IMG/VR virus record: IMGVR_UViG_3300022602_000039
Location: 66,034 to 130,033 of that record
DNA from: a virus
Length of the DNA stretch: 64,000 nucleotides
Direction: 5' to 3' (one strand)
In this document: piece after piece, positions 3,856 to 62,326 of the stretch
How positions within the stretch are numbered: position 1 is the stretch's first letter
Layout of the letters: each line of letters starts with the position of its first letter
The notes under the pieces: generated by a model
Databases searched by the model: none
What the model saw: the letters and a program-made list of their open reading frames with translations, nothing else
What the model was told of the DNA's origin: nothing
Made by a program: the position numbers and the translations under genes

Positions 3856-5616
3856 TTAGGACATTGCTTCCTGACCGATAAGGTTGGCACCAATTGATAA
3901 ACTGCTACCACCGTTTGTAGTCACAGCAAGTGTAAGAACATCAGGGGTATTGCCGCGAATTGTGTTATAGAGCGGGAAGAAGTTTGAAAGATCTTTATCA
4001 TCAAGATTACTGCCTGGTGATACAAAGAAAGCATATACCACTTCACCACCAGTAAAGCTTGTAGCGTTATATTCAATTTCAGCAAATGAGTTAAATGAGC
4101 TCAAAGAGACCATCGAACGCCAGGTTGGGTTGTTTAATACAATGGGATTAGCAGGTGTTGAAGCAAAGAGCTCAATGTATGCGGCGTTATTTGTAGAGAT
4201 TAAAAGATCTTGTGGGAGAATTTGACCACGATTAATTAATCCGATTTGATACGGTGCGCCTGCATACGGTATTGGAAATTGTAATGTGCCACCACCGAAC
4301 GTATTACCTGCAGCCATACCTGAAAGTGAAGCAGGTATAAAGCCGTTCTGAGCTGTAAGAGCATATGATGAGAGTCCAGCAACTACATCAACACACGTTA
4401 ATGAGTATGTTGAGCTCTGATAAATACGCCCGATAGTACCATTTGGATAACCGTTTGTTGTACTTGAAAGTGTCGGGAAATAAATCTGTAGCCCTGATAA
4501 GCCAGCGTTAGCATTAAACGTATTATTAGCAAATGTTAAGACGACAGGACTGCCTACACCGTTTAATGTTGATACACCGGTAATTGCACTCAATCCGGTA
4601 TTCATTGTATATGTATCAACAACTTTAGTACCCATTGTACGGTTTCTAATAGAAAGAACCGGTTGACGTACTCTGTTATTTGGTACAGTTACAAAACCTG
4701 ATGTACCGTAACTGTATGTAAAACCACGTTGAGCATCGCGTTGACCCTCTACAAGGATAGAAACACCGTAATGCAACATTGTATTTGGTGTACCTACACC
4801 TAGGTCTCTTTGTTCATATCGTGCAGGGAGATTACCTGTGCGTGCCCAGGCTTGAGTGAGGGTATTACCTGTTCCAATTTCATGAAGAATATATTCTTCA
4901 CCATTTATTAAAATGCCCCATCTTATTGCACCGGCTCCATACCATGCATACTCCAACCAAATCATTTGGATCTTCGTCCAATCAAGCTGATACTTTATAC
5001 CTGAAGGGTCAGACCATTGCGCTAAATCTACTTTATAATCATTCGGTACACTGTTGATGTCGTTTCTCAAAACAACATACATGCCACTCGGATTATTATA
5101 AGATGGTGCTCCCTGTTCAAAGAAAATACCGTTTGCATCATCAAAAAGACCGACTCTTTGATACTGACCTGCTACAGCGGTACCAAAATTCATAGCAGTA
5201 GCCATAAACATAGCCTTACCAGGTTGGTAACGGTGATATGGGCGACTCTGACGAACAGCTACATCACCTAACCCATTAATAGTTAATGCAACTGCACCCT
5301 GACCTGGTAGTTGTGTTACAGTGGCGGTACCGTTTGTAAGGTTTTCCCAACGGAGGGGTTGAAGACCGTATTCAAAATCGGCTTCATATACGTTTTGTGC
5401 CTGGGATACCTTAAGCTTATTGACAGCGTCCTTCTGTCTTTTGCTAAAATTTACAGGTAGTGCACCATCTGATTGAATATTTGTTAGATAAGAGGCCTGA
5501 GCATATAGAGGTACGCTTTTATCGTTTTGTATATTAACAAACGAATTAGTCCAACCCTGGATAGGGGTTTGTGGTGGTGCTGAAAAGGCAGGTACTGCTG
5601 ATAAAACGGTAGGCAT
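3856..5616 (-). CDS. Virion structural protein, paralog of 29067-31424
   Basis: RQSRPYHRYQPGK...QRVGLFDDANGIFFE segment is shared with 29067-31424; Ser/Thr/Asn-rich; TATAAATA upstream. Confidence 0.65.
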   Translation of the reverse strand: MPTVLSAVPAFSAPPQTPIQGWTNSFVNIQNDKSVPLYAQASYLTNIQSDGALPVNFSKRQKDAVNKLKVSQAQNVYEADFEYGLQPLRWENLTNGTATVTQLPGQGAVALTINGLGDVAVRQSRPYHRYQPGKAMFMATAMNFGTAVAGQYQRVGLFDDANGIFFEQGAPSYNNPSGMYVVLRNDINSVPNDYKVDLAQWSDPSGIKYQLDWTKIQMIWLEYAWYGAGAIRWGILINGEEYILHEIGTGNTLTQAWARTGNLPARYEQRDLGVGTPNTMLHYGVSILVEGQRDAQRGFTYSYGTSGFVTVPNNRVRQPVLSIRNRTMGTKVVDTYTMNTGLSAITGVSTLNGVGSPVVLTFANNTFNANAGLSGLQIYFPTLSSTTNGYPNGTIGRIYQSSTYSLTCVDVVAGLSSYALTAQNGFIPASLSGMAAGNTFGGGTLQFPIPYAGAPYQIGLINRGQILPQDLLISTNNAAYIELFASTPANPIVLNNPTWRSMVSLSSFNSFAEIEYNATSFTGGEVVYAFFVSPGSNLDDKDLSNFFPLYNTIRGNTPDVLTLAVTTNGGSSLSIGANLIGQEAMS

Positions 5617-31460: not shown

Positions 31461-34400
31461 CTATAATGCAATGTAAGAAATATCGTCCTGCTGTGTAAGA
31501 TATGCTGTGAAGTTAATACCGGATTGCGCTAACAAGAAGCTTGTTAATACTTCAGATGTAAAGGTAAATGTTGAGTCATCTGTATCAATATAACCAAATG
31601 TATTGCCAAGAATACTATATTGACCAAGATTTGGTAATACAATAGTAGAACTTAGCCCATATGTACCGAAGTTTTGGTGTAATGTATCACTTGTAGGCTT
31701 ATAGAATGTTGTTGAGAGAACAGTTAAAACACCGTTAATATACCTAAACTTTGTATTAATCGTGTAGAATGCATTAGCAGCGTCCTTACAGAGGTAAGTC
31801 AAGTCGTATATATTTGTAAGATTATTAAATGTTAATATTGGTTTTTCAACTTCAATAATATTAAGATTTTCACCAATATTTGTACTTGAGAGTGAGTATT
31901 GTGTAACAGCACTCAACGGTAGATTTGCATCGGCTGTATATGGATAGAGTTGTAAGAAGTTTGGTGAATTTAAATTGACAACATATATTTTTGGATATAT
32001 TGTCTTAAGGTTTGTGGCACTTAATGGATCTACACCATTAACTATAGACGTATAGAGTTTTGTCTGACAGACAATTATCTGTTTATTAGTTTCATCAAAC
32101 CATGCATTAGAGAATTTTTCAAGATTTGGTGAATATCCACGATATAGATAGCTGTATGTAACTGAACCGGGAACTGAGTTATTAATATAATTAAATCTTA
32201 TCTTATCAAAGATAAGATGATTTGAAGTCTCAATTTGTATTACATCGTAATATACATCAAAATTAATGCACTCATTATTAATTTCATTACCAATAGTGTT
32301 AATAGTACCTGTTGTAGTATCGTAAGCGCTTATTGTTGTATATTTTGTATATACAGAACTTAAAGCAGCAGAGAATGGAGCAATTAACGAGCTGTCAGGT
32401 GTACGGCAATATAGATTACCGTTAACAAGATTACGGGACTGGTATAAGGAAAGATCTATATTCTCGCCTGTTAATGAAAAATCAATAGTAGAACTTAAAC
32501 CAGGTAATCTAACTGGTATGAAATTATTTTGTTCAGTATAATCGTAGATATACTGTGGTGGTGTTAGCGGGTCATAGTTAGTTATTAATGTATTATTACT
32601 GTCATAGTAATCTACAAGGAACCAATAACCATCATATACTGTAACTCCGGATGTAGAGTAAGCAAAAGTAGCGCTCAAGCTTGTTCCACTCACAGTTGGT
32701 ACACCTGCAGATATATAACTAACTAACGAACCACTATACGCCGGTTGACCAGTATTAGTAAGACCGCCTTCCAATAAAGTCCCATAATATAGACCGTATA
32801 GATTTGGATTATAACTAGTAAAGTCGCTTTCTGAGTCAATCCATGTTGTATTATTTGCGCTAACAAATGTTTCACCGTCAGCTACGGTAATAATAAACGC
32901 AGAACTTACATAATCAGGAGTAAATGCTTCAAAATTAAAGCCGTATGATTGAATTCTAATTGTAGCTGGTGATCCACTTAGCGGATTAAGATAACCGCAA
33001 TTAATAGGGTTTGTTGTAAGAGTACTATTAAAGGTGCTATTATCTAATACAAGATCAGTAATAGATGGTGTTGGTATCTCTGGACTTGAAAGCGGAGCTT
33101 TAATTGTATTTGTAGGCTTATAAAGACCGTATTGATTACCGTATATATCAGTCTTAAAATCAAATAGAGTTGAATCTACAGTAAGTAGCTCTTGTGTACG
33201 TTGTGCTAGAGGATATTCACTTATAGGTGTTAATGGATATACATCAATATTATTCCATATACTGTCTAACCCGCCTGTAAAGAAATCTTGATAATCAGTA
33301 TATCTTGAGATACCAGCATTTGAGTAATCTAATGTCTGTTCACGTGATTGATAACTTCTAAATAACTGATAATAAGGTTTTGTATCTACATCACCAAAGC
33401 GATACTGGTTTGAAAAATCAACCTTGTTAAAATAATTCTTTTCAAAAAACGTAAGTGGTGTTACAAAATTTTGTTTTGTATTACTTGTAACATTACCATA
33501 TTTTGTAGGATCAGGAAAGTAATATACAGTGTTTGGCGTTAAGTTAGCCAAATTAATAGAAGCGGCAAAATTAAAATTGGTAAAGTGTAGTAAACCAATT
33601 TTATCGGGCTTAAAGAACAATCCCATCTCTTTACCTGTTTCTAAGAATTCTTGACTCGGTATAGCGGCAATAGTTGGGAAGCGCTTATTAAGAACATTTG
33701 CAAACTCACTATCAGCTGCAAACAACTGACCGGATGTATATGTAGTAAGTGTTGAATCAGTTATTACATAATAAAAATCAGCACCAATATACTTTTGTTG
33801 TTCAATAATTTGTGTATTAAGATTTAAATCTTTTACGTTGTTAGTATTGACTGCATTAATGAACTCACTGTCCTTTAAGAGATTGAGCTGTGAGGGTTGT
33901 ACAGCAGGATTAATTGCTAATTGATTGCCAAGTTGTGAAGTAAATATTGGGTACTGACGGATTGCATTAACAATACTTTGATTAAAGTCTAACGTTAAGA
34001 ACGGGTCAACAGGTACTTGATTTGCTTTAAAATATTTGCTACGCAAATCACCATACGCATCATATGCAGATGCAGGCAGTGTGGGGTTAACATCAAAATA
34101 ATCAGGTGTTAGATCGTAAATGTCTTCAATATCTAACACCATATTGTTTCTAATAGAAGAAACAGATAGATTGAGTGTTGTAATGGTTGTAGTTAAATCC
34201 TGTGATTGAAGGGCATTTGATATTGTATTATACAATAGCGTTTTAATACCGATATTTGAGCCTTTTAAATTATATTGTGTTGTAGCTGTCTGTGCTGTTT
34301 CACGTAATGTTGTATAGTATAAACAAACATCTTTAATCTTCTTTGAAAAGAATGGTACAGCGATTGCGAGATCTCTTGAATTTGTAAAATCTAGATTGCT

Positions 34401-34700
34401 TAGATAACGCTGTTCATCAACAGTAGCGTAGTTAATTATAATTTCGTTAATTAAATTAACATACAAATATTGTACGGCATTTGAGAGCTCTTCCTGTGAG
34501 GAGCCCTTTACTGTATACCAATTAGTAAGGTATTGCTGGTAGAGCGAAAGCGATCCCTCTGGTGTTGTATATGTGGCTTTGTTGTATGGTAGCCACTGAA
34601 GAAAACTTAACGGCTGTGTACGATCTACAGCATTAGTAGCATTAACACCCAATACTGTAATTGAGTTAAAGGTTATAAGCTGTGCCGTAGATGCTGCCAT
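31461..34700 (-). CDS. Large virion (baseplate-associated) protein
   Basis: 1079 aa, downstream of the gp15-like gene; TAAATA upstream. Confidence 0.55.
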   Translation of the reverse strand: MAASTAQLITFNSITVLGVNATNAVDRTQPLSFLQWLPYNKATYTTPEGSLSLYQQYLTNWYTVKGSSQEELSNAVQYLYVNLINEIIINYATVDEQRYLSNLDFTNSRDLAIAVPFFSKKIKDVCLYYTTLRETAQTATTQYNLKGSNIGIKTLLYNTISNALQSQDLTTTITTLNLSVSSIRNNMVLDIEDIYDLTPDYFDVNPTLPASAYDAYGDLRSKYFKANQVPVDPFLTLDFNQSIVNAIRQYPIFTSQLGNQLAINPAVQPSQLNLLKDSEFINAVNTNNVKDLNLNTQIIEQQKYIGADFYYVITDSTLTTYTSGQLFAADSEFANVLNKRFPTIAAIPSQEFLETGKEMGLFFKPDKIGLLHFTNFNFAASINLANLTPNTVYYFPDPTKYGNVTSNTKQNFVTPLTFFEKNYFNKVDFSNQYRFGDVDTKPYYQLFRSYQSREQTLDYSNAGISRYTDYQDFFTGGLDSIWNNIDVYPLTPISEYPLAQRTQELLTVDSTLFDFKTDIYGNQYGLYKPTNTIKAPLSSPEIPTPSITDLVLDNSTFNSTLTTNPINCGYLNPLSGSPATIRIQSYGFNFEAFTPDYVSSAFIITVADGETFVSANNTTWIDSESDFTSYNPNLYGLYYGTLLEGGLTNTGQPAYSGSLVSYISAGVPTVSGTSLSATFAYSTSGVTVYDGYWFLVDYYDSNNTLITNYDPLTPPQYIYDYTEQNNFIPVRLPGLSSTIDFSLTGENIDLSLYQSRNLVNGNLYCRTPDSSLIAPFSAALSSVYTKYTTISAYDTTTGTINTIGNEINNECINFDVYYDVIQIETSNHLIFDKIRFNYINNSVPGSVTYSYLYRGYSPNLEKFSNAWFDETNKQIIVCQTKLYTSIVNGVDPLSATNLKTIYPKIYVVNLNSPNFLQLYPYTADANLPLSAVTQYSLSSTNIGENLNIIEVEKPILTFNNLTNIYDLTYLCKDAANAFYTINTKFRYINGVLTVLSTTFYKPTSDTLHQNFGTYGLSSTIVLPNLGQYSILGNTFGYIDTDDSTFTFTSEVLTSFLLAQSGINFTAYLTQQDDISYIAL

Positions 34701-34713
34701 ATTTTATATTTAA

Positions 34714-35556
34714 TTAGAATAACTGAATATAGGCAGGCACGTTAGCTCCCTGTTGTGTATAGAACGCATTAGATATCTGTGGGTTAGCAGAGATGGATAC
34801 AGTTTCATTTTGATTTATTAATCCAGATGATAATGCAGGTACGTAATTGTTTTGTGCTGTAAGTTCAGCAACGGAAGTAACAAGAGCAACATTATGGAAG
34901 TTATTATTAATATAGAAGATATTTCCAACATCATCTTGTGCTGCAGGGAATAACCAGCCTTTGATAGTAAAAGTTGTATCTCCTGTTACCTTATATTTTT
35001 CAGATGCATTAATATCGGTAGGATACGTAAGGTTAATCGTGCCATCCCAAAGGACCTCGCTTCGAATTTCCTGAGGTATAGCAAATCCACCATTAACTAG
35101 ATCTTCAGGGACCTTCCAGGATAAAATAATATATGGATTATTGTAGGGTACAAAGTTCGATATAATTTGATCCATATCGCTCTGAAACTTTGTTAATATT
35201 GACATAGCAACTGTAATATTAACAGGAACAGGTGAATTATAATGTGTTGTTGTTGAAAGTCCTGTAGAATCGCTTATACCTTTTGAATAGTAATAGCCGT
35301 CGAGCTTATTAAAGACACGATTTAAATCACGTGTTACTGATGTAATGTGTACAGATACAACTGGAACAGTGATATTCTGAGCTAAATTTACAATATCATA
35401 TATAACTCTCTGTTTTGGAGAATATACATAACGAACCTGTACCTTATTTACAGCGTTACGGTTTTTATCGTATCTTTTAATAATGATATCATCAAAAGCA
35501 GCTACGAATTGAGTTATTAAATCCTTAATCTCAAAGTGATAAGCTTGATTTTTAAT
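34714..35556 (-). CDS. T4 gp15-like tail terminator/sheath stabiliser, probable ATT start (280 aa)
   Basis: Frame is open 117 codons upstream of the track's ATG (35205): (I)KNQAYHFEIKDLITQFVAAFDDIIIKR...YSPKQR...PVPVNI...MDQII...FTIKGWLF; SD AAGGAGG 8 nt before ATT. Confidence 0.8.
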   Translation of the reverse strand: MKNQAYHFEIKDLITQFVAAFDDIIIKRYDKNRNAVNKVQVRYVYSPKQRVIYDIVNLAQNITVPVVSVHITSVTRDLNRVFNKLDGYYYSKGISDSTGLSTTTHYNSPVPVNITVAMSILTKFQSDMDQIISNFVPYNNPYIILSWKVPEDLVNGGFAIPQEIRSEVLWDGTINLTYPTDINASEKYKVTGDTTFTIKGWLFPAAQDDVGNIFYINNNFHNVALVTSVAELTAQNNYVPALSSGLINQNETVSISANPQISNAFYTQQGANVPAYIQLF

Positions 35557-36364
35557 AGGATGGTCCTCCTTTATGAATAAAATTAAATCCTAAATCTGCA
35601 GGTATAGTTAATGATGTTGCGCCCAGTTGTTGTAATACTGGATTTAGTTTTATCATATGATTATTTAATGTTACGTGTGAGTTCTTGCATAACCTACTTA
35701 AGGTGGGTTTTGATATGTTGTTATTAGCAGCGGCTTCACTTAGTGTTTCATACATACCACATGGTGTACACCAAAACCCTTTCCACGAATTGTTACATAT
35801 TCCTTTCGATGCTTTTTTACGTATAACGCTCATTTTTTTGCAGAATTCTGTAGATCGAGATACACCCGTTCTTGCTATCCGCATTTTGCTTCTGCTAATG
35901 GGTGTAGCTTGGTGTTTTCTTATTAATATATTGTGTATAACAAGAGTGTGTCTTACCCTCTCCATACAAATATTGTATTTGATTGCAATATCCTTAATAC
36001 TATTAAATTTTAAATAATCGCTAATTATTTTATTTTGTATTTCTGGAGCAATATATTTTTTACCTCTTTTAACACCTGTATTACCACCTGAACCGCCTTC
36101 AGCAATATTATAATTACCGTATTGCTTAATATACTCTCGCTCTTTTTGATCGACTATTTTATTATTTACCTTTTCTAATATCCTATATGTAAAGCTATGC
36201 CAACCGTATTTTAGAATAGCGTCATAAAGAAGGGATTTTGTTTTTCTTGTAGATCTTTTACAATCATAGAGATGTCGTTCTATTCTTTTTGCTAAGCTTG
36301 TTTTAGTTTTACCAATATAATGTTTATTTGTAACAGTACATGTTATTTGATAAATATACGCCAT
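35552..36364 (-). CDS. GIY-YIG homing endonuclease (free-standing, Seg-like)
   Basis: YIYQITC...HYIGKT...R...H...YNIAEGG; NUMOD-like C-terminal region. Confidence 0.85.
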   Translation of the reverse strand: MAYIYQITCTVTNKHYIGKTKTSLAKRIERHLYDCKRSTRKTKSLLYDAILKYGWHSFTYRILEKVNNKIVDQKEREYIKQYGNYNIAEGGSGGNTGVKRGKKYIAPEIQNKIISDYLKFNSIKDIAIKYNICMERVRHTLVIHNILIRKHQATPISRSKMRIARTGVSRSTEFCKKMSVIRKKASKGICNNSWKGFWCTPCGMYETLSEAAANNNISKPTLSRLCKNSHVTLNNHMIKLNPVLQQLGATSLTIPADLGFNFIHKGGPSY

Positions 36365-36403
36365 ACATATATTTATCTTTTATTTCAAGATAATATAACA
36401 GAA

Positions 36404-38038
36404 TTAATGAATGCGCTCTATAAAGTGTTTTGGTAGCTTGTTCTTTGATCTGGTTACTACATTAAAGAAGTTTCCATCAAGGATATATGTGCTGGAATGA
36501 TCGTCCTTACTCCTGGTAGATCTACCTGCAGCTTGAACAACAGCGTTTAACATTTTATTCTCATACCACTCTTTATCTATATCGAATAGATGCTTAATAC
36601 GCTTAGATCCAAGAGGCAAAAACGGTAGTTTTACTATTATCTGAAAGCGCGCTAAATCATCTTTAAGATCTATACCATATACCATAGAAGGTGATACAAG
36701 AACGGTAGGATCCTTAGTTTCCATATGTTGCTTAAGAATATCTTCATTGGTAGTGTTTGTATCTCTAAAGAGAAGTCTACTGCTATTTACTCTATTACGT
36801 ACAAATTCGGTAATTTCAAAAGAATGTGTATGAATAATTCCTTTGTCGTTCTTATGATGTTCGAGTATTTGTTTTATTTGTTCACAAATTCCAGGTAACA
36901 CATTCTTTAAATTTTTATAATTCGGTTTATGTGTAGTCGATACATAAATTGGTGATTTTTTAGCATCAAAACTACTGCCAATCTCAATATATTCATAATC
37001 CTTAATACCTAAAGATTTTGCAAAGTTTTTATGATCAATAATAGTCGCCGAAAGTAATACTATCTTATCTGCAAACTTAAAAATACTATCTGTTAAGAAG
37101 TCAGCTCTTAGTGGTGTAATTAATACATGTTTTGAATCAATCTCTACAACATATTCACCTTTATCCCATAACGATACTAATGATGTTAATGAGCGATGAA
37201 GATTTTTCAAATAACCATATTTGATTTGCTCACTGTTTGATAGCGCTACGGGTTTGCTTTTATTCGTAGCCTTAGCAGATAGAATCTCTATCTCTTCATT
37301 TAGCGTAATAATTAAATCCGTTACCCAATTAAGGGCACGTTGCTGGTTATCAGTAACTAGCGTTGTGTGTTTAATATTGTAATTATCGAGTTTCTCATAA
37401 ACAACTTCAGCTGAAAATTGTCTAATAAGCTCATCTTCGAGTTCTGAAGCCTCATCACATACTATAAAGTTTTTACGCTTTACATGATCAGGTAAGGATA
37501 GGAACATTTTATAGTTTAAGGCAGCAAATGGTGCAAGTAAAGCTTGGTTTCTTGCATTATAGTAATGGCAGCGATTAACTGACCAGCATTGATCTTTAAG
37601 CTTAGGAGCAAAGGTACAGGGTGCTAATTCTGTATCAAAATTATCATCAATATCACATCTATAATTGGTTTTACCCTTAAGAATAGATGTATCATTAAAG
37701 AGATTATAATATTGATCTTGTAATGTCTTCGTTATTGTAAGAGCAAACGTACCAAATGCTGGTTCTTGTGTACATTCATACCCATACGAATAACCACCAT
37801 CAAATTCTTTCTTGTATGCGTCATAACTCTCAATGAGTCTTACAAATTCATCTGAAGGCTTATTACTTAAATTAGCAAGAGTTTTTGCTATAAATGATTT
37901 TCCGGATCCTGTAGGAGCACAGCATACGACAATCTTCTTATTCGACTTAAAAGCCTTTTCAATATCGTTTAAAAGCTTAACTTGACCTGAAGATGGTGTA
38001 AATCCTATAGGAAAATTATCAGTATATGTATTCAGCAC
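36404..38038 (-). CDS. DinG/XPD-like SF2 helicase
   Basis: APTGSGKS, KGKTNYRC with Cys cluster, DEAS, LSAT, GIDL, QAAGRSTR; TTGTAA-16-TATAAT-6 nt-GTG upstream. Confidence 0.88.
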   Translation of the reverse strand: MLNTYTDNFPIGFTPSSGQVKLLNDIEKAFKSNKKIVVCCAPTGSGKSFIAKTLANLSNKPSDEFVRLIESYDAYKKEFDGGYSYGYECTQEPAFGTFALTITKTLQDQYYNLFNDTSILKGKTNYRCDIDDNFDTELAPCTFAPKLKDQCWSVNRCHYYNARNQALLAPFAALNYKMFLSLPDHVKRKNFIVCDEASELEDELIRQFSAEVVYEKLDNYNIKHTTLVTDNQQRALNWVTDLIITLNEEIEILSAKATNKSKPVALSNSEQIKYGYLKNLHRSLTSLVSLWDKGEYVVEIDSKHVLITPLRADFLTDSIFKFADKIVLLSATIIDHKNFAKSLGIKDYEYIEIGSSFDAKKSPIYVSTTHKPNYKNLKNVLPGICEQIKQILEHHKNDKGIIHTHSFEITEFVRNRVNSSRLLFRDTNTTNEDILKQHMETKDPTVLVSPSMVYGIDLKDDLARFQIIVKLPFLPLGSKRIKHLFDIDKEWYENKMLNAVVQAAGRSTRSKDDHSSTYILDGNFFNVVTRSKNKLPKHFIERIH

Positions 38039-38055
38039 ACCTTGATTATAGCTGC

Positions 38056-38403
38056 TTAATTAGCTATTACAACCATCTTTTTATTAAACAACTTTGAAGG
38101 TCGATTCAGTGTTATCTTTTTAGAAGCTTGAGCGATATTTTCATTACCGAGACAAAAGCTTTCAAGCGTATAATCAAACTCTAAGCTACTGACTGTAATA
38201 TTTGTTGTAAAGGGATACGGTATTTCGTAGATATAGCGTTTATTACCACGGTCTGGTGTAGTAAGAGTGAAGACGCAAAAGAAGTCTTTAACAGAGAACA
38301 GGATAAGTTTACCGGTTTTAACTGTCTTATTATCAATATTAAAAGAAATATCTCTAAGAAGAAATGGTTTAATAAGTTGTTCTATGTTTTCTACAGATGT
38401 CAT
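38056..38403 (-). CDS. Hypothetical protein
   Basis: 115-aa ORF coupled to the upstream gene. Confidence 0.65.
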   Translation of the reverse strand: MTSVENIEQLIKPFLLRDISFNIDNKTVKTGKLILFSVKDFFCVFTLTTPDRGNKRYIYEIPYPFTTNITVSSLEFDYTLESFCLGNENIAQASKKITLNRPSKLFNKKMVVIAN

Positions 38404-38783
38404 GAGTTCATGAAGTTAATTTTTTGTGCTGCGTTCATTCCAACAAGCTTTTCATTAAAAAATTTCCAAAATTCTTTATTAGCAGGTATTACCTGAATTA
38501 AGTCACATGCTGCCATATTAATACAACGATAATCTTGCATAAAAATATCCCATGTAATTACAAGATTCTTAGCAGTCGGATCAAATTTAGGCATTCTAAT
38601 AGCGCGTTTATAGTTGAGCGCAAGTATTCCCTCAGTGCTACCTAGTAAAGATAGTGAGTTCGTGCACAACATACGCCTGGTAGCCGGTGCACCGGGCTTC
38701 GGTCGTTTGCGTAAAAACTTAATTTCTGCTACGTTGTTTAGCAGAAGACTTTTTATTGTGGACAGCGACGCTTTCATTTTCAT
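38400..38783 (-). CDS. Hypothetical protein (DUF2693/SH3-like phage family)
   Basis: IKF.RK.....RRMLCT...WD....YR pattern. Confidence 0.5.
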   Translation of the reverse strand: MKMKASLSTIKSLLLNNVAEIKFLRKRPKPGAPATRRMLCTNSLSLLGSTEGILALNYKRAIRMPKFDPTAKNLVITWDIFMQDYRCINMAACDLIQVIPANKEFWKFFNEKLVGMNAAQKINFMNS

Positions 38784-61894: not shown

Positions 61895-62326
61895 TTATAA
61901 CCTGTTTTGAAAAGACTGCAACTCTCCCTTTGGAACCCTACCAATTCGTACATTTATGATACCATTGTAATAATCCTCGCGCATCAGTACGTCCTTGTCA
62001 ATTTGCTCTTTTATTTCATAATACGCAAGAGCCCATTTTGAATTGCATGTTTTTATAATTTTAAAAATAAACTTATCTTTACCGTATTTTACAATATCTT
62101 CGTTAAGTTCATTGGAGGAACTTGTATATTCGCGCCAATCAGAGTCAACATAATCAATTCTGTTTCTCTTCTTACCCTTCAGTGGTTTACGTTTAAGTCT
62201 ACTATGACATTGCTTTTTACCAATATACTTCTTATTATTGACAGTATTGGTTATTTCGTAGATAAAACCAAAAAAATCACCTGTAACGGTAACCCCATCG
62301 TCTAACTGCCAATGACCTAAGTCCAT
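61895..62326 (-). CDS. Short GIY-YIG nuclease
   Basis: GFIYEITN...KYIGKK...SDWREYTSS...E...YYNG. Confidence 0.85.
   Translation of the reverse strand: MDLGHWQLDDGVTVTGDFFGFIYEITNTVNNKKYIGKKQCHSRLKRKPLKGKKRNRIDYVDSDWREYTSSSNELNEDIVKYGKDKFIFKIIKTCNSKWALAYYEIKEQIDKDVLMREDYYNGIINVRIGRVPKGELQSFQNRL

Follow-up and report, generated by a model that had tools for sequence, protein, structure and literature searches.

How can a conserved phage tail gene initiate its translation when its reading frame offers no ATG, GTG or TTG anywhere near the place where the protein should begin? The question is raised by the gp15-like gene, coding for a tail sheath stabiliser or tail terminator, in a DNA stretch of 64,000 nucleotides which is here called the window. 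It is positions 66,034 to 130,033 of the IMG/VR virus record IMGVR_UViG_3300022602_000039, namely the second half of a record of 130,033 bases with 35% G+C and about 60% completeness, and the public contigs carrying it come from lake and freshwater metagenomes. In this gene the first in-frame canonical start codon, an ATG at 35205, comes 117 codons after an ATT, and directly upstream lies a homing endonuclease gene (HEG) of the GIY-YIG type. Our answer, to which we give a probability of about 0.72, is that gp15 is initiated at this ATT on a leadered late mRNA, with signals that were brought in by the HEG cassette. The features on which it depends, all of them on the minus strand, are the following.

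34714..35556, minus strand: gp15-like tail sheath stabiliser / tail terminator gene, 280 codons (PF16724, phrog_227, T4 gp15 structures)
35554..35556, minus strand: ATT, predicted start codon of gp15, overlapping the HEG stop by one base and aligned with the first codon of homologues
35565..35571, minus strand: Shine-Dalgarno (SD) sequence AAGGAGG, within the HEG codons Lys-Gly-Gly, 8 nt before the ATT
35590..35592, minus strand: in-frame TAG closing the gp15 frame, 12 codons before the ATT
35552..36364, minus strand: free-standing GIY-YIG HEG, 270 aa, with Pfam and phrog matches; its stop TAA is 35554..35552
36370..36375, minus strand: TAAATA box of the HEG cassette, late-promoter-like, 5 nt before the HEG ATG (36364)

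A sequence-only reading had already proposed this arrangement, that is, a gp15 frame with 117 start-less codons closed by TAG 12 codons upstream of the ATT at 35556, an AAGGAGG in the last HEG codons 8 nt before an ATT that overlaps the HEG stop, and a TAAATA 5 nt before the HEG ATG; every one of these statements holds letter by letter. The 3' end of the HEG reads CAT AAA GGA GGA CCA TCC TAT TAA, the T that ends the ATT opens this TAA as well, and gp15 continues from the ATT with AAA AAT CAA.

That the ATT is the homologous start position of gp15 is seen from its relatives. The product matches PF16724 (E 1.7e-19, 70.4 bits against a cut-off of 25; residues 6-224 on profile positions 3-210 of 245), phrog_227 (E 5.9e-17) and the T4 gp15 structures 3j2m and 4hud (E 2.4e-8; 3j2m_A on residues 89-221), and since profile position 3 falls on residue 6, no upstream part or exon is missing. 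The gp15 proteins of cultured T4-like phages are only distant relatives, at about 25% identity, and at the DNA level cultured phages gave one short match in the helicase gene. A search of 5.8 billion proteins returned 2239 relatives. Among the 120 that were listed, all of them gp15 relatives, 106 have a Met, Val or Leu start exactly at the position of the window's ATT; their N-terminus, M/V/L followed by K/Q/R-N/L/A-Q-T/S-Y/F-H-F/W-E, is in register with I-K-N-Q-A-Y-H-F-E in the window, and the other 14 have upstream extensions of 6-7 residues, are truncated calls, or are variants of the motif used for counting. From 101 confirmed loci in IMG/VR (numbered with L below) 80 were kept, and 79 of these hold the start region (L052 lacks its 5' end). 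The codon at the homologous start is GTG in 59, ATG in 14 (one codon up in L008), ATA in 4 and ATT in 2, so that ATG, GTG or TTG stands there at 73 of the 79 loci. The start position suggested by the sequence-only reading is thus borne out by homology.

The stretch between the ATT and the first ATG is, judged by its substitutions, coding and under purifying selection. Between the window and its nearest relative, L001, codons 2-117 of gp15 differ synonymously in 43 cases and non-synonymously in 14, with 11, 5 and 48 nucleotide differences at the first, second and third codon position; and between the window and a contig of the public run X4, 27 of the 29 listed differences fall at third positions, including 11 of the 12 upstream of the first ATG. 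A start-less head of at least 40 codons is found in only two of the stop-to-stop frames of at least 150 codons in the whole genome, and gp15, with 128, is one of them. The SD sequence is hardly an accident of composition, as the 130,033-base genome has only 10 copies of AAGGAGG, both strands counted, and by simple arithmetic a copy would end 5-10 nt before a given codon with a probability of about 2 in 10,000. Its duplex with the anti-SD has an energy of -11.6 kcal/mol, and its spacing fits initiation. From all this we infer translation initiation at the AUU.

The letters themselves were checked in other contigs, and those at 35554-35556, on which the sequence-only reading had asked for a check of reads, are the same in contigs of three public runs. 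The contigs of X1 (35400-35709) and X3 (35408-36479) are identical to the window; X1 may be the source sample, and parts of the stretch are uncovered in X1-X3. The X4 contig, from another study (21.7 kb, depth 148), spans 34900-36500 with 31 differences, of which the 29 listed all lie within 34936-35371 and none within 35372-36500. ATT stands at the gp15 start also in independent contigs from other samples, and an assembly error at this codon is excluded. The X4 contig is in this respect a mosaic, without a difference over the HEG and the initial ~185 nt of gp15 and from there on differing at the 29 listed sites in 436 nt (~7%); this is what a co-converted flank would look like, and may be taken as a hint of one. 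Separately, at positions 35164-35437, contigs of X2 and X3 with depth 20-28 match only 29-45 nt at either edge and have ~200 nt in between replaced by 188 other letters, which points to a co-occurring relative with a divergent gp15 middle.

How do the relatives begin the same gene? Most of the 39 distinct contexts with a canonical start share one layout, with the helicase stop, TAAATA or TAAGTA, and then either 5 nt and GTG or 6-7 nt and ATG; these contexts have no SD sequence (duplex energy about 0). The sequence-only reading had expected TAAATA-N(5-9)-ATG in endonuclease-free relatives, and what is found there is TAAATA-N5-7-ATG/GTG without SD. A second layout, which it had not foreseen in HEG-free contigs, has TAAATA followed by a short leader in which a strong SD stands 6-8 nt before an ATT, ATA or ATC (together called ATH). 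A pattern scan found ATH at the gp15 start position in 22 IMG/VR stretches and 11 metagenome contigs, some of them the same and many of them HEG-free. They make up about 17 distinct contexts including the window, 11 with an SD energy of -9 kcal/mol or stronger and 3 near -6. Over 71 distinct proteins the raw association is strong, ATH occurring with SD in 16 and without in 4, and a canonical start with SD in 1 (L051) and without in 50; the pattern scan selected for ATH rows, and proportions on the tree are therefore meaningless. On the maximum-likelihood tree the start type changes 9 times (8-9 over bootstraps), at least 6 of these changes being forced by starred branches. The gp15 of the window is sister to that of L001 (100/93*), in a starred clade with L002 and L003. 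These three have an ATG start behind TAAATA-N7 and no SD, which argues that SD and ATT are derived in the window lineage, coincident with the HEG.

Some individual contexts deserve a record of their own. In L049 (the same as L093), at 3988-4003, an ATA without SD stands at the gp15 start, with an ATG and a GTG just upstream and out of frame; its sister is L051, which has a HEG and a GTG start, and the ATA of L049 could reflect an error in the contig, an indel of one base or an unusual initiation codon. In the HEG-free SD+ATT loci L091, L096 and L022 only AATGT or AATAT stands between TAAATA and the SD, and the leaders of L091 and L096 carry in addition an in-frame ATG-TAG pair. Such leaders resemble the TAAATA-TATGT head of the cassette joined to its SD end, so they may be older and further-trimmed scars.

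What, then, is the element that sits upstream? Its product matches GIY-YIG PF01541 (E 4.9e-8, 33.6 bits against a cut-off of 22.6), phrog_314 (E 5.1e-28) and the I-TevI catalytic domain 1mk0 (E 0.0082), the residues invariant in three homologues include Y5, Y16, G18, R27, H31, E75 and N86, and the C-terminal two-thirds fall in no named family. At the helicase|gp15 junction a HEG is present in the window, L039 and L051, a remnant in L116, and neither in the other inspected loci. By these matches, and by its presence in some genomes and absence from others at a single intergenic site, it is a homing endonuclease gene of the free-standing GIY-YIG type, with cleavage and homing as predicted activities. 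Relatives of it at this site were found in IMG/VR only in the L039 and L051 contigs, with six distant N-terminal matches elsewhere, and none were found in metagenome contigs. L122, the sole match to a pattern made from the cassette head, is unrelated and due to chance. A second weak match to the N-terminal GIY-YIG part lies in the window at 62036-62272, minus strand (tblastn E 4e-4, 34% over 80 aa).

The HEG of L039 is 47% identical to that of the window and begins with the same block, AAAGATAAATA, 5 nt, ATGGC, which also heads the L116 remnant. At its end, too, a Ser-Tyr-stop overlaps an ATT, and the purine-rich stretch ahead of it is weaker. The HEG of L051 is 36% identical, ends AAG GAG GTT AAA TAA, and has in its last codons a TAAATA-N5-GTG for gp15. 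In all three lineages the HEG ends in purine-rich, SD-like codons. Within the ORF of the window HEG there is one more feature of this kind.

35654..35667, minus strand: embedded TAAATA-N5-in-frame ATG inside the HEG ORF (box 35667..35662), ~105 nt before the ATT; candidate gp15 late promoter

A run of 21 nt here recurs unchanged in the L039 HEG, at a protein identity of 47%, and is lacking in L051. The box codes for the conserved peptide LNNHMIK with AT-rich codons, so the match in L039 may be a by-product and the box is only a candidate promoter. It may alternatively be the start of a 34-aa C-terminal peptide.

The most direct witness of what the cassette leaves behind is L116, a metagenome contig of 2426 bases whose gp15 falls in the same six-member starred clade as the window (100/91*), the next larger one. 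After its helicase stop there is a TAAATA (1355-1360), then 5 nt, and then a 12-codon ORF (1366-1404) reading MVYMYQIGGTSY, with AGGAGG at 1386-1391 and ATT at 1400-1402. The 12 codons are the first 7 and the last 5 of the window HEG, which begins MAYIYQI and ends GGPSY, and the DNA aligns with both ends of the window cassette; gp15 starts with ATT AAA AAT CAA in both, and the ATG sisters differ there. By this alignment L116 is an in-frame deletion of the nuclease that keeps promoter, SD, overlapping stop and ATT. The helicase frame of L116 is broken at about 1130-1185, some 200 nt before its end, by a sequencing error or a real break.

The mechanism that we propose is SD-directed initiation of the ordinary kind, in which ribosomes guided by AAGGAGG begin gp15 after an 8-nt spacer, on the AUU at 35556..35554, and the gene would have to use AUU because a mobile GIY-YIG cassette replaced its native signals. 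These native signals would have been those of the nearest relatives, TAAATA, 7 nt and ATG without SD. In a TAAATA-abutting layout of this kind transcription probably sets in on the start codon or right beside it, as the geometry of T4 late promoters would have it, and the promoter-abutting late genes of this phage are, from their spacing, probably leaderless. The cassette would supply its own TAAATA-N5-ATG head, the SD in its last codons and a TAT-TAA end that overlaps the ATT. With it gp15 would have become an internal cistron of a late mRNA made from the HEG promoter, or possibly from the TAAATA embedded in the HEG. The box at 36370..36375 is in this scheme a presumed promoter, and likewise the 5' ends of the mRNA, the initiation at AUU, any coupling and the reason for a low output are deduced from sequence. 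Ribosomes that finish the upstream frame would do so on the AUU, so that part of the gp15 synthesis may come from termination and re-initiation, and L116 retains such a mini-ORF. As to why the codon is AUU, there may be two reasons. A strong SD with AUG would over-produce a few-copy protein such as gp15, whose output is probably kept low by pairing that SD with a weak start codon; GTG, likewise a weaker start, dominates the promoter-abutting layout. Alternatively, the T of the ATT completes the stop codon of the nuclease and would travel with the cassette.

With regard to its origin, the sequence-only reading had held that the HEG was inserted between gp15 and its late promoter and now provides the translation signals. 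The latter part stands and the former does not, as the TAAATA belongs to the cassette: the same promoter + ATG block heads the L039 HEG and L116, so that the native promoter and ATG were replaced and the HEG did not simply slip between them. It had also held that losing the element would be costly, which may be so. By the evidence of L116, the nuclease ORF itself is losable provided that both ends, with promoter, SD and ATT, stay.

Several observations weigh against this account. Three of the ATT/ATA contexts, the L089 type (L089/L103/L113), L049 and L117, have a weak SD or none, and an independent-pairs test of ATH start against SD gave 6 pairs and no significance (median p 0.375); the same test of ATH start against the promoter-abutting layout was also not significant (median p 0.25). 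Many HEG-free loci have SD and ATT without a recognisable HEG remnant, so in some lineages these signals could be native. The start of gp15 in L039 is ambiguous, because two in-frame TTG codons stand 6 and 8 codons before its ATT. The mosaic of X4 is visible on one side only, and sliding-window identity of the gp15 5' end against relatives gave no clear recombination signal, as this end is conserved in all of them.

The HEG-free loci lead to the alternative that SD and ATT are native and older, and that the HEG inserted upstream, its ORF running into the native leader as far as the TAA of ATT-AAA, so that it is the HEG which borrows the signals. Any ATT-AAR start yields a TAA in the HEG frame, and the occurrence of SD with ATT, ATA or ATC at gp15 in so many HEG-free contigs is what such a history would leave. 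However, L001, L002 and L003, the nearest relatives, have ATG without SD, in L116 the SD and ATT are physically joined to a HEG remnant, and the HEG homologues of three lineages all end with SD-like codons. A HEG that came as a later lodger therefore fits the window poorly and we regard it as unlikely here, and as possible in other lineages. The sequence-only reading had itself named a +1 frameshift fusion as its alternative, in the manner of prfB, with the ribosome shifting at TAT-TAA-A to join nuclease and gp15. As in prfB there are an SD, a stop codon at the junction and a downstream frame that is +1 to the upstream one. Frameshifting in prfB needs an SD about 3 nt away, and 7-8 nt is the spacing of initiation; here 7 nt separate the end of the SD from the TAT codon, the same SD and ATT occur in HEG-free relatives behind stops with no ORF to fuse, and a fusion that put a nuclease of 270 aa in front of the conserved N-terminus of this ring-forming tail protein would be implausible. 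This alternative is not supported, and we think it very improbable.

Nor is it credible, except at very long odds, that gp15 is decaying or makes only the 163-aa product from the ATG at 35205. That ORF is the sole canonical one, which a gene finder would call, but its product, starting at Met118, would leave out 117 conserved residues that belong to the Pfam domain. Decay is at variance with the purifying selection on codons 2-117 and with the conservation of gp15 as a tail protein throughout this phage group. The chance that the HEG lies within a self-splicing intron, or that the ATT is misassembled, is close to nil. Phage GIY-YIG genes often sit in group I introns, according to PMC2988022, but a search of 33500-38500 against Rfam up to E 10 gave no intron family and only one chance match to an sRNA; the HEG ORF occupies all but 39 nt of the insert, and by comparison with the homologues no exon is missing. 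Against misassembly stand the same letters in contigs of three runs and the ATT in independent contigs. Initiation at the ATT with signals from the cassette remains the explanation that we prefer.

In bacteria, the genes infC (coding for IF3) and pcnB of E. coli are initiated with AUU. They are alike to the present gene in a near-cognate AUU that depends on the ribosome binding site, for a protein of low or regulated level, and here too the AUU stands at the start position of orthologues, with no in-frame canonical start and with an SD at initiation spacing. The difference is that here the gene is a structural gene of a phage, the AUU overlaps the stop of a mobile nuclease, and no feedback by IF3 is implied; no IF3 domain was found in the 130-kb phage record, which is ~60% complete.

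For the role of the HEG, the closest likeness is in T4. According to PMC2988022, the free-standing HEGs segG (next to gene 32), segA, segE, mobB and mobC embed promoters of the downstream gene, which favours their own retention. As with segG and gene 32 in that account, the HEG would have displaced the native signals of an essential neighbour and now holds them in its coding region, and L051, with TAAATA in its last HEG codons, is the exact parallel. Unlike the segG type as described there, the window HEG embeds an SD and not only a promoter, the start codon has changed to ATT and forms part of the HEG stop, and in L116 there is a natural remnant from which one can read what is kept once the nuclease is gone. 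With I-TevI and the Seg-type enzymes the window HEG shares the N-terminal GIY-YIG domain and a free-standing intergenic presence or absence, and it is unlike them in the C-terminal two-thirds without a named family. The gp15 gene is of the same family as that of T4 (PF16724; 3j2m, 4hud) but differs in its neighbours, with a helicase upstream and a 1079-aa unknown ORF downstream. In the portions of the literature that our search reached, no report was found of an AUU start on gp15 or of an SD embedded in a homing endonuclease gene, nor of a start codon doubling as the nuclease stop or of a natural remnant that documents what must stay.

The genes on the minus strand follow the order DNA helicase, GIY-YIG HEG, gp15-like gene and 1079-aa ORF, and the flanking features are these.

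36404..38038, minus strand: DNA helicase gene (phrog_2488 E 3.3e-96, Pfam Helicase_C_2)
34700..34712, minus strand: TAAATA followed after 6 nt by the ATG of the 1079-aa ORF; a promoter-abutting start of the type usual in this genome

The helicase gene lies directly upstream of gp15 in HEG-free relatives, and most of the related loci show its C-terminal end ahead of gp15. In the whole genome 21 ORFs of at least 60 codons, the HEG among them, start exactly 5 nt after a TAAATA, a sharp peak compared with other spacings, and ATG genes led by an SD are present as well. Within 34500-36600 a terminator scan found 0 terminators and sigma-70-like sites were fewer than in shuffles; RNA structure around the gp15 start was not beyond chance (z 0.79). 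Elsewhere in the genome, at ~2,890-23,650 and thus before the start of the window, a motif of ~22 nt with AGGAGGAGG then GTCAAG has at least 11 copies on the plus strand; its minus-strand reading is a box containing TTGACA, perhaps of early promoters.

Beyond this one locus, we suggest tentatively, and at less than even odds, that the cassette is a mobile expression module whose decay leaves a scar of promoter, mini-ORF, SD and AUU. HEG traffic would then be a general source of SD-led AUU, AUA and AUC starts on low-copy phage tail genes, with gp15 translated by re-initiation from a leaderless mini-ORF, and as part of the same conjecture the essential gp15 would depend on the 3' end of the cassette, where the SD stands and the AUU doubles as the nuclease stop. 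For annotation the consequence is immediate. Gene finders drop 117 conserved residues of an essential tail protein here, relatives with ATT or ATA must suffer likewise, and gp15 is systematically wrongly annotated in uncultured T4-like phages. The loci also form a natural series of one gene, from promoter-abutting GTG or ATG, through an intact nuclease with SD and ATT and a 12-codon remnant with SD and ATT, to a bare SD and ATT. In it one can follow how the translation signals of a host gene can be rewritten by a selfish element, with a trace that lasts. The locus extends the retention trick of the T4 endonucleases from embedded promoters to translation signals, and offers a testable origin for some of the non-AUG starts of phages.

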